From a virus, in UHGV virus genome UHGV-0205415: 39,456 nucleotides of DNA; one strand, 5' to 3'. Positions 4,060 through 24,817 of the stretch are shown here, one piece after another. The position numbers and the translations under genes were made by a program. Below the pieces are notes generated by a model. It ran no database searches and was not told the DNA's origin. It worked only from the letters and a program-made list of their open reading frames with translations. Position 1 is the first letter of the stretch, and each line of letters begins with the position of its first letter.

Positions 4060-6057
4060 TTATATTGCAGATATTATAAAACATAATAATTCTTCATATC
4101 TTATTCCATATCGCTCACCCCCTTCTATAGATATTCTGCGTTCTCCAGTATCATATTCAATTAATTTTTCATCACCGGATTCTTCATCAAAAATTATCTT
4201 TTTAGCAATTACTGGTTCGTATTCAGTTTCCCATTTATCATAGCAAAAAAGACCATAGTCGTTTGCATCAAGCCCTTCTTCAGCAAATGCTTTATATACA
4301 TCTTGGGCAATAATGCCAAAATGTAATCTAGCATTTTCTCCTTTTTCAATTACTGAATCTATAAATCTAAAACAACAAACCAAACCCTTTATTTTATATG
4401 CAACACGTCTCTCTGCATCAGTAATCGGTCTTTTATCAGTCTTAACTCGACCATCCGATGTGTTAATCGTTGAAGTGCCAGCAAATATTGTATTCCACCT
4501 TCTGGATGCTGAACCGCAATTTCTAGCGTTATCTGTTGCTGGTTGTACCGACGCATCAAAACGAGCATAATTATTCTCATCAGAAACAGGTCCCATCAAT
4601 CCACTCAAAAAAGGGAGCCCGCTCTGATTAGCAATTATTAATTGGTTGTCACCTGAAGAAATTGCCGAACCGGCATTGGTTCCGATAAATATATTACCTG
4701 TTCCAGAGCTTAACGATCTACCAGATCTATATCCAAGCATTACATTGTTACTTGCCGAACCAATAGAATTAAGTGAGTCGGCTCCTACTGCGACATTATT
4801 CATCCCTGTAGATGTGCCTGTATAAGGGTTATCTATAGAAGAAATCCCTCTTCCTGATCCGCTACCAATATATGTATTGTTATCTCCATTTGTAATCTCC
4901 CTTCCGGATGCATTGCCTATAAATGTGTTATTATTTAGAATGTTATAAGACAACCTTTTGCCTGATTGGTCTGTAACAATTCCAGCTCGCATTCCAGCCG
5001 CTCGACCTATTGCAACATTACCACTACCAGTATGAAGTTGTTGTAATGCACTTGATCCTACTGCAACATTAAAATTTCCTTCTTTATTTTCATTTAGGGC
5101 ATCGCGCCCAATTCCAATTATGTTACTAGCTGTGGTTGATTTTTTGCACGCATTCACACCAATTGCTACAATCTCAGTGCCAGTGCATGGCGATGTATCT
5201 GTGAGATCGTCTTGAAGGGTATCACCTGATAATACACCTGTCCCAATTGCTGTAATGTTATTGCCCGTGCTAATGTTTCTTCCTGCACTTGGTCCAATCG
5301 CAACAACTTGCCCGGATATATCATTTCCATTATATATCTTGCCAGCATCAAAACCAAAAAAAACATTTCCAATTGTCTGAGCAGGATTTGCAAATGGAAT
5401 AGGTTCGTCTCCTTTACTTTGTATTATTTTACCAGGGCCATAAAATTTTCCATTAATATAGTTCTCAATTAAATAAGTACCTTGTGGAACATAAACACCG
5501 TCAGGTGAAACTGAAGATGCATAGGAAAATATATGTGTTGCGTCAATATTGCCATTAACAATGTCGCTAACATCTTCATGTTTTACAAAATCAAGAATAC
5601 TAATATTCTCTGCATTTTTATCATGCTGTGTTCGTTTTGTAGAATTAATTAAAGGTTGTTTTACTGTGATTAATGAATCACCAAGCCCATCATCTGAACT
5701 TAAAAGTTCTTGCCTTAACTGATCCGGGTCATACTTCAGCACATTAGGAAAATAAAACTGCTGCGCACCATATGCATCATAAACAGCCATAGAATGGCCT
5801 TGCACAGTTACGAACTTGGCAATCTGTCCGTTATATACCGGATATCCGGCAGCGTTAATGATTATTGGTTGCGAAACAGGAATGTGAGAACCGTCTTCGT
5901 TCTCTACATAAACCTGAATCTGGTTTTCAGGATTTACCGGGTCAGTGTCAATTTTACCGATATAAATTTTGCCATTGGCTACGGCTTTAAAAGAACGCGC
6001 CATAGTGAAGAGTTGCGAAGGCATACTCACTACAACATTGGCTGTAATGTCTGTCAT
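4060..6057 (-). CDS. tailspike protein: P22 gp9-like head-binding N-terminus, repeat-rich central domain, C-terminal S74-type intramolecular chaperone domain
   Basis: N-terminus [11 protein letters not shown]...[11 protein letters not shown]...VTVQGHSMA...LKYDPDQ matches P22 tailspike head-binding domain (recalled); C-terminus resembles autoproteolytic chaperone of endosialidase/tail fibers. Confidence 0.85.
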
Positions 6058-6189
6058 TTAATTTGCTCCAGATACAAGGAATGGCCGCAGCATGGCTACG
6101 GTTGGTATTTGTTGCATACCGAAACGGTACGATTGTTGATTTGTACAGTAGGTTTTACGATGCCATTCCACCCATTTGGTGAGGCATTG

Positions 6190-6447
6190 ATGATGTACAG
6201 CAAATACGATGAGGCGCAGTTCCACTTGAGGCTTACGCACGAGTTGCACGCTAAGATTAAGCAGCGTGCAAAAATGAATAACAGGTCTATCAATTCCGAA
6301 ATTGTGGCTACGATGGAAGAATCACTCTCCAAACCATCACCTGTAAGCGGGTATCGTGATGAAGAAGAGAGGCTGGCCTCATTAATCTCGGAACGAGTAA
6401 AAGAAGTTGCGGCTGATATCCTTAGAAAAGAAAAAACCCGCGATTAA
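6190..6447 (+). CDS. mnt: Mnt-like ribbon-helix-helix repressor
   Basis: Only the C-terminal 86 codons of track ORF 5794..6447; NNRSINSEIV and SKPSPVSGYR motifs match P22 Mnt (recalled); GGTGAGG RBS before ATG. Confidence 0.75.
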   Translation: MMYSKYDEAQFHLRLTHELHAKIKQRAKMNNRSINSEIVATMEESLSKPSPVSGYRDEEERLASLISERVKEVAADILRKEKTRD

Positions 6448-6461: not shown

Positions 6462-6683
6462 TTAGTTATCAAAAAGTCCGTACGTTTCTTCTTCTTCAGG
6501 TGTAAGGGGAAGAATCTCTACTCTATCTATAGATACCTTTTCAATGTACCCATGAGGTCTACTTAAAATTAAAGCTCTCTCATGCCACAGAACTCCAAGA
6601 ATGTGATACCTCCCAGCATCGCCTTTTACCCTGGCTCTTCCTTTGATTCTTGGCGGCATAATGCCATATTTTTTCTTTGCCAT
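6462..6683 (-). CDS. hypothetical basic 73-aa protein, translationally coupled to upstream gene
   Basis: ATG overlaps upstream stop (TAATG); no family recognised. Confidence 0.4.
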   Translation of the reverse strand: MAKKKYGIMPPRIKGRARVKGDAGRYHILGVLWHERALILSRPHGYIEKVSIDRVEILPLTPEEEETYGLFDN

Positions 6684-7411
6684 TATGCAACATTACTCCC
6701 ATGAATCAGGTGTTGTAGTGCTTTAACACCTTCCGCATTGTAGCGGAATGCTTCCACCTGTTTGCTGGAATGCGCAGATTTATCCAGGAAGAACTTACCG
6801 TACTGCTCAGTTTTGAGGTTGTTTGCGTTAGCAATGCGACCAATCTTGTTGGCCGTTACTCCAAGCTGCTCTGCAACCTCCCCTGCTGAGTAGTAATGCT
6901 CTTCTATTGCTGGAAGAGGTATTGCATTAAAACCAACGATCGGGTTTATTATGCTTGCTGCCGCAGTCTGCTTTGCTTCCGGCGCAAGATTTGGCATCAA
7001 ATCGAACAGATTGGTAACAGCTTCAACCGTCATTTTCAATGTTCGCGCCTGGCGATACTCAACAAGTCCACTCGACGATTTACCGCTTTTAATGTGCGCT
7101 TCTTGCATACTTTCAAGTTGGTCTACAAGTGAGCGGCGAACAGCTTTAGATTCACGAGCAGCCACTCGAAGGGCTTGCTTAATTGACATAACAACTTTTT
7201 CAGAAGTTGTCTTGTTTGATTTTTGAACTACGAAAATTTCGTAGTGCTCACCTTCAAGTTCATCCTTAATGCGTGCAATAAAGTCGTTATTGCGGACTTC
7301 TTTTTCCCCGCACTGTCTACGAGCATGATTGACCATCTCTAACAGGTACTGGCTATCAATGGTTTTATCCGTGACAACGGATCCGATGTTTGCTACATTC
7401 TTAAAAGTCAT
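6683..7411 (-). CDS. Rha/antirepressor-family regulatory protein (tentative)
   Basis: ORF 6683..7462; ATG at 7411 with AAGGA RBS; domain resemblance to phage Rha/KilA-C antirepressors (recalled, moderate). Confidence 0.5.
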   Translation of the reverse strand: MTFKNVANIGSVVTDKTIDSQYLLEMVNHARRQCGEKEVRNNDFIARIKDELEGEHYEIFVVQKSNKTTSEKVVMSIKQALRVAARESKAVRRSLVDQLESMQEAHIKSGKSSSGLVEYRQARTLKMTVEAVTNLFDLMPNLAPEAKQTAAASIINPIVGFNAIPLPAIEEHYYSAGEVAEQLGVTANKIGRIANANNLKTEQYGKFFLDKSAHSSKQVEAFRYNAEGVKALQHLIHGSNVA

Positions 7412-7449
7412 TAGGCATTCCTTATGTGGTAGTAAGGGTGTGACATAGG

Positions 7450-7480
7450 CCGCCAGCAGCACACTGGCGGTTTTCTTTTT
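7450..7480 (+). terminator. plus-strand intrinsic terminator-like hairpin inside the minus-strand antirepressor operon
   Basis: CCGCCAG-cagcaca-CTGGCGG followed by TTTTCTTTTT. Confidence 0.3.
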
Positions 7481-7499
7481 GCGCCGTCCGGCGCACCAA

Positions 7500-8138
7500 T
7501 CAATGAATCCATTCCTCGCCGCGAAGTTTTGCCAGCATTGGCTGAGCGTTCTTTACGACAAAATTGTTGGTATCAAGATTCTTCATTTCACGAAGAAGTG
7601 ATTTCTTGGTTTCTTCTGACATGTAGCGAGTCTCATATGCAATATCGTAAATCCTTCCAGAAAGCTCAGAACCAATTTGCTTCATTCCTGGGTAGATGTG
7701 TTTGCACATTTGTTGACTCTTCTCCATCCACAATTGTAAGTAGCAGAGATTAACCAGCTCTTCGTCAGTAAACTGTTTTGCAATCGGTGAGCATTCTGCC
7801 TGCCGATCCAAAATATCCAGCACCCAGCGGCGGAACTCTTTGGCCTTGGGCGTAGAAGCAAACATCGCCACCAAGTGAGCGCCTCGGAGCGAGTAAACTC
7901 TGACCGATTTGTTACGTAAGCTATTGTTTATCCCGTTGACCTTCATATTGAGGGTCAATGACATTGAGTCGGAAAACTCGTCAGCATTACGGGCATAAAT
8001 TTGGCTGATGGCATCAGTTTTTTTATAGCCGAGAGCCTTAGCTAGTTCGGTGGAGGTAAACCAGATAGACCCACCCTCTGTTACAGGGTTAAAGGTGAAT
8101 CCTTGGAAGTTATAATCTGATTTTGCTACAATGTTCAT
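7500..8138 (-). CDS. ant: antirepressor with BRO-N-like domain
   Basis: ORF 7500..8222; ATG at 8138 with AAGGAAA RBS; BRO-N-like segment FTSTELAKALGY...VRVYSLRGAHLVAMF. Confidence 0.7.
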   Translation of the reverse strand: MNIVAKSDYNFQGFTFNPVTEGGSIWFTSTELAKALGYKKTDAISQIYARNADEFSDSMSLTLNMKVNGINNSLRNKSVRVYSLRGAHLVAMFASTPKAKEFRRWVLDILDRQAECSPIAKQFTDEELVNLCYLQLWMEKSQQMCKHIYPGMKQIGSELSGRIYDIAYETRYMSEETKKSLLREMKNLDTNNFVVKNAQPMLAKLRGEEWIH

Positions 8139-8214
8139 GTTAGTTTCCTTGCATACGGTTACTGACATAGAGGCCCGGTTTGTGTTCGCGCACTGCCGGG
8201 CTTCACTATTTTTA
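8123..8214 (+). ncRNA. candidate sar-like antisense RNA covering the ant ribosome-binding site
   Basis: Perfect TATAAT at 8111..8116 on plus strand inside ant 5' end; GCCCGG...CCGGGC hairpin plus T-run in arc-ant intergenic region; analogy to P22 sar RNA. Confidence 0.3.
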
Positions 8215-8385
8215 CTGGGCATTAACTCTTTCCTCTCTCAGGCTTTTAGCCAGTCGCTGCACAATCGCAGAGTTGATAGAAATTCCATCCATTTCAGCAA
8301 CACGTCTAATCTCCTCCTTCATTCGCGCTGGCAAACGAAGCTGGAAACTTTGACTTTTACGACCTGTGTAAAGCACATCTTTCAT
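8212..8385 (-). CDS. arc: Arc-like ribbon-helix-helix repressor
   Basis: ORF 8212..8412; ATG at 8385 with GGAGG RBS; FQLRLPARMKEEIRRVAE...ISINSAIVQRL resembles P22 Arc. Confidence 0.7.
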   Translation of the reverse strand: MKDVLYTGRKSQSFQLRLPARMKEEIRRVAEMDGISINSAIVQRLAKSLREERVNAQ

Positions 8386-8413
8386 AAGTAATCCCCTCCA
8401 CAATGATACCAAC

Positions 8414-8455
8414 TTGGTTCTAGAACCAATTTAACACCATTTATTTTGATGTCAA
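8414..8455 (-). promoter_or_regulatory. Pant-like promoter (-35 TTGACA, 16-nt spacer, -10 TAAATT) overlapped by 16-bp perfect palindrome TTGGTTCTAGAACCAA (operator candidate)
   Basis: Read directly from sequence; sits in divergent region between arc and the second mnt-like gene. Confidence 0.5.
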
Positions 8456-8497
8456 GTTGGTGCTATTGTTTAGCGAACATCTTTACGTTGAGGTCAT

Positions 8498-24510: not shown

Positions 24511-24817
24511 CTTCTACTCCGGCTTTTTTAGCAGCGAAGCGTTTGATAAGCGAACCAATCGAGTCAGTACCGATGTAGCCGATGAACACGCTCGTTATAT
24601 AAGCGAGATTGCTACTTAGTCCGGCGAAGTCGAGAAGGTCACGAATGAACCAGGCGATAATGGCGCACATCGTTGCGTCGATTACTGTTTTTGTAAACGC
24701 ACCGCCATTATATCTGCCGCGAAGGTACGCCATTGCAAACGCAAGGATTGCCCCGATGCCTTGTTCCTTTGCCGCGAGAATGGCGGCTAACAGGTCATGT
24801 TTTTCTGGCATCTTCAT
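24494..24817 (-). CDS. S: holin/antiholin, lambda S with dual start (MKM)
   Basis: Protein sequence essentially identical to lambda S107 as recalled. Confidence 0.95.

Follow-up and report, generated by a model that had tools for sequence, protein, structure and literature searches.

A palindrome at the antirepressor promoter of a P22-like Escherichia coli prophage is a probable Mnt-type operator with a new specificity

The palindrome and its surroundings

The palindrome TTGGTTCTAGAACCAA, at 8414..8429 of the virus genome UHGV-0205415, is studied here as a candidate operator. The 39,456 nucleotides of this genome, which we call the window, represent a P22-like Escherichia coli prophage. The palindrome is identical to its own reverse complement over all 16 bp, in agreement with the first-pass annotation of this DNA, and it contains an XbaI site. 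It is located in a gap of 112 bp between an arc-like gene (8212..8385, minus strand), which encodes 57 amino acids and is the first gene of the operon behind a Pant-like promoter, and mnt2 (8498..8881, plus strand), which encodes a ribbon-helix-helix (RHH) repressor of 127 amino acids, the proposed binder of the dyad. Both proteins match the Pfam family Arc (PF03869; for Mnt2 with an E-value of 1e-16), and the earlier placement in the divergent region between an arc-like and a second mnt-like gene holds. The gene order of the region is tailspike, mnt1, a 73-aa gene, two antirepressor genes, the arc-like gene, the intergenic region, mnt2, a gene for a membrane/coiled-coil protein of 107-123 aa and a gene 16 homologue. 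Among 5,426 complete E. coli genomes, 71 have this region.

The Pant-like promoter occupies 8428..8455 on the minus strand. It consists of a -35 box TTGACA (8455..8450), a 16-nt spacer, a TG at 8436..8435 and a -10 box TAAATT (8433..8428). Its 10 of 12 consensus matches and the TG of an extended -10 were recovered by our consensus scan, and from the spacing the start is predicted near 8421. The palindrome shares two nucleotides, the last two of the -10, with this promoter, and its centre (8421/8422), 6.5 nt downstream of the -10, roughly coincides with the predicted start; the overlap with both elements had been described properly in the earlier annotation. On the plus strand, an extended -10 element TG-c-TATTGT (8461..8469, predicted start near 8476) is the proposed promoter of mnt2, Pmnt2. 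The simple consensus scan did not call it, due to the lack of a good -35.

The palindrome can be read as a dyad, TTGGT-TCTAGA-ACCAA, centred on the predicted Pant start and proposed as the primary operator (O1) of Mnt2. A third copy of the arm, TTGGTGCTA, is found at 8457..8465 on the plus strand. It repeats 8414..8422 in direct orientation, reaches into the -10 of the divergent promoter and is proposed as an autoregulatory half-site. A weaker, putative arm, ACCAA, is present upstream at 8408..8412, in the arc leader, where it forms ACCAAcTTGGT together with the left arm of the dyad. The half-site-like motifs that had been noted on both sides of the palindrome, CCAACTTGG (8409..8417) and TCAAGTTGG (8452..8460), are indeed there and include additional copies of this arm. 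Both motifs belong to a larger, imperfect inverted repeat (8400-8416 / 8453-8469) with 82% complementarity.

In a window of this size and composition, 0.69 perfect palindromes of at least 16 bp are expected by chance, and one was observed. The existence of the palindrome alone is thus not significant, and the case for it rests on position and comparison. Inside the 112-bp intergenic region the expectation is about 0.002 (112/4^8, our own arithmetic). The 9-mer TTGGTKCTA occurs four times in the 39-kb window, three of them in the 52-bp stretch 8414..8465; the expected number is 0.49, and four copies were reached by none of 100 shuffles.

Salmonella phage Oslo and the window are about 76% identical across arc, mnt2 and the region between them. 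Hardly any difference is seen in the block 8400-8472, while both mRNA leaders diverge. In a sliding comparison, the identity maximum of the whole region (93-97%) falls on 8400-8430 and exceeds every coding segment. For a broader comparison, 137 related loci were taken from IMG/VR; 117 of these have both genes and gave 59 distinct intergenic sequences. The window's own class (class A) was aligned using 12 representatives with less than 94% pairwise identity. The invariant columns are TGGT 8415-8418, C8420, A8422, CCAATTTA (8426-8433), CA (8435-8436), TT (8440-8441), TGTCAAGT (8450-8457) and GGTGCTA (8459-8465), and the third copy is invariant as AGT-n-GGTGCTA. Both Pant hexamers and the TG are invariant in this class, and TGTCAA is found at the same place in all six classes described below. 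The TG-n-TAnnnT at 8461-8469 is kept in all 12 representatives, with a varying hexamer (TATTGT, TACCAT, TATCCT, TACTAT, TATTAT), and class B has TGCTACTGT at the equivalent place, which is consistent with a promoter of mnt2. The upstream arm at 8408..8412 is partly conserved as ACCAA, GTCAA or ACCTA and makes perfect palindromes of 13 to 19 bp in some relatives (L134, L020, L025).

When the promoter columns are removed (the Pant -10, its TG, the -35 and the plus-strand TG-n-TAnnnT at 8461-8469), the invariant positions left unexplained fall on TTGGT and CC(AA), which are the arms, and on AGTnGG in the third copy. The six central base pairs vary asymmetrically in class A (TCTAGA, TCTAAA, TCTACA, GCTAGT, ACTAGA, GCCAGA and others). 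Because the centre varies, what is conserved is TTGGT-N6-ACCAA, in which the centres of the arms are 11 bp apart; perfect symmetry over 16 bp is a special case that belongs to this lineage.

These data bear on the simplest explanation, a chance palindrome without a function of its own that is conserved only through the overlapping promoter. About 0.7 such palindromes per window would come by chance, the -10 accounts for the AA of the right arm, and transcription may start at the centre. However, TTGGT at 8414-8418 and CC at 8426-8427 are invariant outside any promoter element, a third copy is present at 8457, the other classes each carry a dyad array of their own in this position, and the strongest identity maximum with Oslo is found here. 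We therefore give chance hardly any credit.

We regard it as equally improbable that the palindrome works at the RNA level, as a hairpin in the arc leader or the late transcript, or is a site for a host factor or the main immC repressor. Palindromes can form hairpins, but the predicted start lies inside this one, and its arms are conserved without compensatory change while the centre varies asymmetrically. The predicted fold of the arc leader is not better than that of shuffled sequences (z = -0.59, 54 of 200 shuffles fold as well). As to a host factor, GntR-type host regulators recognise TGGT/ACCA arms; the arms are here spaced by 6 nt, compared with 3 nt in PdhR-type sites. Control of the immC type was discarded too. 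TTGGTN6ACCAA is unique in the window at zero mismatches, the one-mismatch match at 24543 and the fourth 9-mer at 12164 are inside open reading frames, and the two-mismatch matches clustered at 36.4-36.7 kb form no coherent pattern and have no repressor gene nearby.

Covariation of the dyad with Mnt2

The best solved relative of Mnt2 is Mnt (1mnt, E-value 2e-8). Residues 10-53 align with residues 5-48 of Mnt, which puts RFNIRLP on HFNFRMP. The 50% identity of Mnt2 to P22 Mnt is confined to the RHH domain (residues 12-53), and the protein matches phrog_3178 over the full length. The N-terminal RHH domain carries a beta-strand of the base-contacting type (DRFNIRLP, residues 10-17) that is homologous to that of Mnt, in line with membership of the Mnt family. 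At the aligned base-contacting positions, R11, N13 and R15 of Mnt2 correspond to H6, N8 and R10 of Mnt. These residues of Mnt reportedly contact DNA, and its N-terminal residues are said to set the operator specificity.

By its beta-strand, Mnt2 can be sorted into six classes across the 59 distinct intergenic regions, and each class is found with only its own dyad. The strand DRFN(I/V)RLP of class A (R/N/R at the aligned base-contacting positions) goes with TTGG-N8-CCAA, in full TTGGT-N6-ACCAA, in 34 of 35 regions, and ERFT(V/I)R(M/F/L)P of class B (R/T/R) with CATCA-N3-TGATG in 13 of 14. PVFNLRMP of class C (V/N/R; two of two regions) is accompanied by ACCCCAC(C/G)GTGGGGT, an Omnt-like dyad at the P22 offset. 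For class D, the pair is APFGLRMP (P/G/R) and CACGGTG-N9-CACCGTG, in all five regions; for class E it is DKFNLRFP (K/N/R) and ACACCAT-N5-ATGGTGT, assigned by eye in both regions; and for class F it is DKFMLRLP (K/M/R) and ATGTCATAATGACAT, in the only region. The strand of class C is the one closest to HFNFRMP of P22 Mnt, and its dyad resembles P22 Omnt. In classes B to F the number of class A arms per intergenic region is 0.0. Each class has two to five class-specific arms arrayed at fixed distances from the Pant -35, and in class D relatives one is also found on the far side of the -35, at +20/+21.

Natural recombinants separate the two RHH genes. In the loci L004 and L005 the arc-like gene is about 95% identical to that of the window, and the beta-strand QSFQLRLP is the same in both. 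The intergenic sequence of these loci is another one altogether: the position of the palindrome is taken by the dyad ATGACATCAcCATGATGTCAT, and the N-terminus of mnt2 reads ERFTVRMP instead of DRFNIRLP. In L002 and L003 the palindrome and residues 1-25 of Mnt2 are kept and the rest of Mnt2 is replaced. Mapping of the breakpoints shows that 8100-8385 (the 5' end of ant, the sar-like region and arc) is common to the window, L002 and L004, and that 8386 to about 8560 (the arc leader with the operators, both promoters and the first 21 or so codons of mnt2) is common only within the palindrome class. One recombination junction thus lies at the arc start codon. The natural swaps agree with specificity in the N-terminus, as the class of the dyad goes with residues 1 to about 21-25 of Mnt2, whatever the remainder, although this evidence is correlative.

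The same loci bear on the proposal that the palindrome is the operator of the arc-like protein, i.e. an Oarc analogue by which this protein shuts its own operon while Mnt2 binds elsewhere. The arc-like gene is the first one downstream and a true Arc homologue, P22 Arc represses Pant according to the annotation of NC_002371, and a separate site for the arc-like protein was not found. However, the operator does not covary with the Arc-type beta-strand. The identical strand SFQLRLP, in genes about 95% identical, occurs with three unrelated dyad classes (FQLRLP with class A in 29 cases, B in 13 and D in one), class A arms persist with the four arc strands FQLRLP, FNLRLP, FSLRLP and FTLNLP, and the junction at the arc start codon parts the gene from the dyad. 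We find this proposal improbable.

The relation was also approached from the DNA side, by a search for TTGGTNCTANNACCAATTTANCA in one genome per species (185,579 species). Seven matches were obtained. In three of them, from Xenorhabdus, Izhakiella and Erwinia, the promoter context is complete, and QEMDRFNVR(L/M)P is encoded beside it each time; the C-terminal domains are unrelated, and the arc strands are FSLRLP, FTLNLP and FNLRLP. The other four are in unrelated phyla and without the context; about four are expected by chance for 19 specified bases (our own arithmetic). In the Xenorhabdus hominickii locus (L147), an element AACCAATTTAGCA, consisting of an arm and a -10, is duplicated in tandem upstream of the motif match, which gives two arm/-10 units.

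The C-terminal domain of Mnt2 (residues 54-127; 8657..8881) is freely exchanged, as seen in L002, L147, L148 and L150. At least five unrelated C-termini, in proteins of 127, 106, 94, 88 and 99 aa, are joined to the same N-terminal ~25 residues, and none resembles the Mnt tetramerisation domain. A recently solved 79-aa 'Arc family DNA-binding protein' (PDB 9pio, chain G) matches both RHH proteins weakly (E-values 6e-3 and 3e-5).

Because the dyad follows the divergent Mnt-like protein and not the arc-like protein, the palindrome is read as an analogue of Omnt. The first-pass annotation had described a generic Arc/Mnt-type operator at a Pant-like promoter, and this architecture is borne out by the immI-like gene order and the conserved strong promoter; the comparison supports the narrower assignment. 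In our judgement the palindrome is probably the main operator, of the Mnt type with a new specificity, of an immI-type secondary-immunity switch in this P22-like E. coli prophage. Most likely it is not a new type of element or mechanism, it is a new-specificity example of a well-known switch with a somewhat different geometry.

We propose the following scheme for binding, stoichiometry, repression and autoregulation. Mnt2 would bind as two dimers on one face of the helix, with its beta-ribbon in the major groove at TTGGT (8414-8418) and ACCAA (8425-8429). RHH proteins usually bind inverted repeats as a dimer of dimers (PMC2777438), and half-sites in inverted orientation, about 11 bp apart, are to be expected (PMC2777438; Raumann et al. 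1994, cited therein). The dyad would span the last 2 nt of the -10 to about +8 of Pant, where bound Mnt2 would exclude RNA polymerase. In the lysogen, the arc-like gene and the two antirepressor genes would thereby be kept silent by Mnt2, and the third arm (8457-8465), over the extended -10 of mnt2, would probably give autoregulation. The specificity would reside in a cassette of about 175 bp, 8386 to about 8560, that holds the operators, both promoters and Mnt2 codons 1 to about 21 and is exchanged as a unit between phages.

Several points weigh against an operator of Mnt2. Only the 5-bp arms TTGGT/ACCAA are conserved among the relatives, and the invariant C8420 and A8422 may mark the transcription start (T at -1, A at +1 and G at +2 on the minus strand) and not protein contacts. 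Beyond residue 53 Mnt2 has no similarity to the C-terminal tetramerisation domain of Mnt. In a single-sequence AlphaFold2 model the C-terminal 74 residues are all-helical, at low confidence (predicted local distance difference test score, pLDDT, 56), and cooperative binding of two Mnt2 dimers is assumed. The covariation is confounded by physical linkage, since the N-terminal codons of Mnt2 are about 70 bp from the dyad. The start codon of arc is 29 bp from the palindrome and that of mnt2 is 69 bp from it; simple linkage would thus favour arc, the nearer gene, yet arc is the uncoupled partner. Finally, a separate site for the arc-like protein, which must have a target somewhere, was not found; this protein could have a share in the array of Mnt2.

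The arc-like protein and the Pant spacer

Over 48 aa the arc-like protein shows 42% identity to P22 Arc, and its gene, like arc in P22, is the first of the Pant operon. A candidate for its site is the Pant spacer element ACACCATTTATTTTGATGT (8434..8452), a degenerate dyad at the position of P22 Oarc. It is the only candidate we have, and the evidence for it is weak: the dyad has 5 of 7 matching positions in the window and is not conserved in Oslo. P22 Oarc fills the Pant spacer, whereas the spacer of the window, ACACCATTTATTTTGA, has no conserved dyad between the -35 and the -10 and varies in Oslo, and the palindrome does not follow the arc-like protein.

The only k-mer outside the promoter elements that is common to classes A, B and E is ACACCATT (8434-8441). 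A motif search over the intergenic regions with the same arc strand gave only ACACCATT and the -35 flank, at inconsistent offsets. Among class A regions, the arc strand variants with Q or N show no clear pattern by eye against the changes in the region. In two other loci, L019 and L025, with the arc strand VFNLRLP, a perfect 19-bp dyad ACACCATTTAAAATGGTGT fills the Pant spacer (equivalent to 8434..8452), i.e. the P22 Oarc position.

From these elements it can be argued that both RHH proteins use one array of ACCAA-like sites, Mnt2 on TTGGT/ACCAA and the arc-like protein on CACCA-type sites in the Pant spacer, possibly with cooperativity. Related motifs follow each other at about 10-11 bp, the helical repeat, with centres near 8410, 8416, 8427, 8438, 8448 and 8459, ACACCATT is common to three classes, and the perfect dyad ACACCATTTAAAATGGTGT of L019/L025 is just where the arc-like site would be. 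Set against this are the degeneration of the spacer dyad in the window and its loss in Oslo. The offset of ACACCATT from the -35 also differs (16 nt in class A, 27 nt in class B), and its CA and TGT are already explained by the extended -10 and the -35. A shared array seems unlikely to us, although less so than a palindrome that belongs to the arc-like protein.

One arc-like protein (SFQLRLP, 80-100% identical; L004, L050, L065-L144) is combined with at least three unrelated operator sets. Because the same protein serves all of these, it may lack an operator of its own class and not work like P22 Arc, the specificity being set entirely by the swappable cassette of about 175 bp, of which there are at least six natural versions. 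We put this forward tentatively and hold it to be rather doubtful. If true, the arc-like protein might recognise only a cross-class element (ACACCATT or the -35 flank), or it might act by contacting the bound Mnt-like repressor or RNA polymerase.

The module and its relation to P22 immI

The module is bounded on the left by the tailspike open reading frame (4060..6057, minus strand) and on the right by the gene 16 homologue, which encodes an ejection protein (9250..11361, minus strand). Its position between gene 16 and the tailspike gene is that of immI in P22, and its flanks match epsilon34, CUS-3 and HK620. As in P22 immI, a divergent RHH repressor gene on the plus strand faces an operon on the minus strand with arc-like and antirepressor genes, here two of the latter, as assigned by Pfam and PHROG. 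The first antirepressor gene (7500..8138, minus strand) has the domains Bro-N (PF02498) and P22_AR_C (PF10548) and matches the anti-repressor Ant (phrog_245, E-value 4e-50). The second (6683..7411, minus strand) matches the anti-repressor phrog_1726 (E-value 2e-100) and has no Pfam match. These two different genes lie in tandem behind arc and are followed by a conserved 73-aa gene, phrog_4977 (6462..8138, minus strand, for the three together). To the left of about 8100 the first antirepressor gene diverges from the versions in L002 and L004. In Escherichia phage JEP4 (MT740315) the antirepressor genes are 98% identical up to the arc stop codon, and arc and mnt2 are not shared; the comparison (7400..8218) marks another mosaic junction at about 8218.

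A sar-like antisense unit lies at 8103..8218 on the plus strand. The scan found a promoter, TTGGAA-18-TACAAT (8103..8132) with a TG and a predicted start at about 8139, and the predicted RNA of about 80 nt has two hairpins and ends with a hairpin and a T-run. It lies between arc and ant, is complementary to the ant ribosome-binding site and folds with -33.8 kcal/mol (z = -5.6). In 16 diverged loci none of the 9 pairs of the terminator stem is broken, four pairs show compensatory changes, and the T-run that follows is conserved. No Rfam family matches this RNA, the only hit being a sub-threshold match to symR at 8136..8207. The RNA is the predicted functional analogue of P22 sar and, as in immI, the small antisense RNA would be placed opposite the translation start of ant.

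A second Mnt-like gene, mnt1 (6193..6447, plus strand), is located at the far end of the module, where it points away from the divergent tailspike gene and towards the convergent antirepressor operon. Its product is a full-length homologue of P22 Mnt, with 47% identity over 73 aa including the C-terminal region. Upstream of mnt1 no inverted repeat or dyad of at least 7 nt was found, and by eye only TACCGaaaCGGTA at about 6118..6130 was seen. Mnt1 was rejected as the binder of the palindrome: an identical Mnt1 protein is found beside class A and class B regions, the gene is absent from L001, and it has no dyad of at least 7 nt upstream.

In the P22 reference (annotation of NC_002371) the order is TTGACA, Oarc ATGATAGAAGCACTCTACTAT filling the spacer, TATATT-ctcaat and the Omnt core AGGTCCACGGTGGACCT. 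The window resembles it in having a sar-like RNA, a strong Pant-like promoter with a TTGACA -35 and a dyad of about 16-17 bp just downstream of the -10, over the start; at the level of sequence, this arrangement corresponds to that of the annotated Omnt. The operators themselves differ. TTGGT-N6-ACCAA is unrelated to AGGTCCAC-G-GTGGACCT of P22 Omnt, and neither annotated operator, Oarc or Omnt, is related to the palindrome, as the first-pass annotation had surmised. The centre of the dyad is about 8 bp closer to the -10 than in P22, and an additional arm is found at the repressor's own promoter. The two predicted starts are about 55 bp apart, compared with about 37 bp in P22 (our own estimate from the annotated hexamers). 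Further differences from P22 are the unrelated C-terminal 74 residues of Mnt2, the two antirepressor genes and the second Mnt homologue at the far end.

The Mnt/Omnt system of P22 was described by Sauer et al. 1983 and Vershon et al. 1985 (cited in PMC2629481). According to Villafane et al. 2008 (PMC2629481), the 'ant moron' region from gene 16 to gene 9 is highly mosaic, its content of mnt, arc and ant varies, and only the P22 version has been studied. The window, with flanks common to epsilon34 and CUS-3, fits this mosaic; the operators or specificity classes of versions other than that of P22 are not described there. In the literature we found no mention of this sequence and no description of immI operators other than those of P22. 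Among 50,697 phage records, the class A cassette was found only in Oslo and three Klebsiella phages.

The P22 Arc/Mnt system, so far studied in one phage, would thus extend to a family with at least six natural pairings of operator and beta-strand. These pairings provide material on how RHH beta-strands read DNA, as well as orthogonal pairs of repressor and operator, and they may help to predict the cross-immunity of prophages at the level of the antirepressor. The main value lies in the six natural pairings and in the question of how one arc-like protein serves several operator classes.

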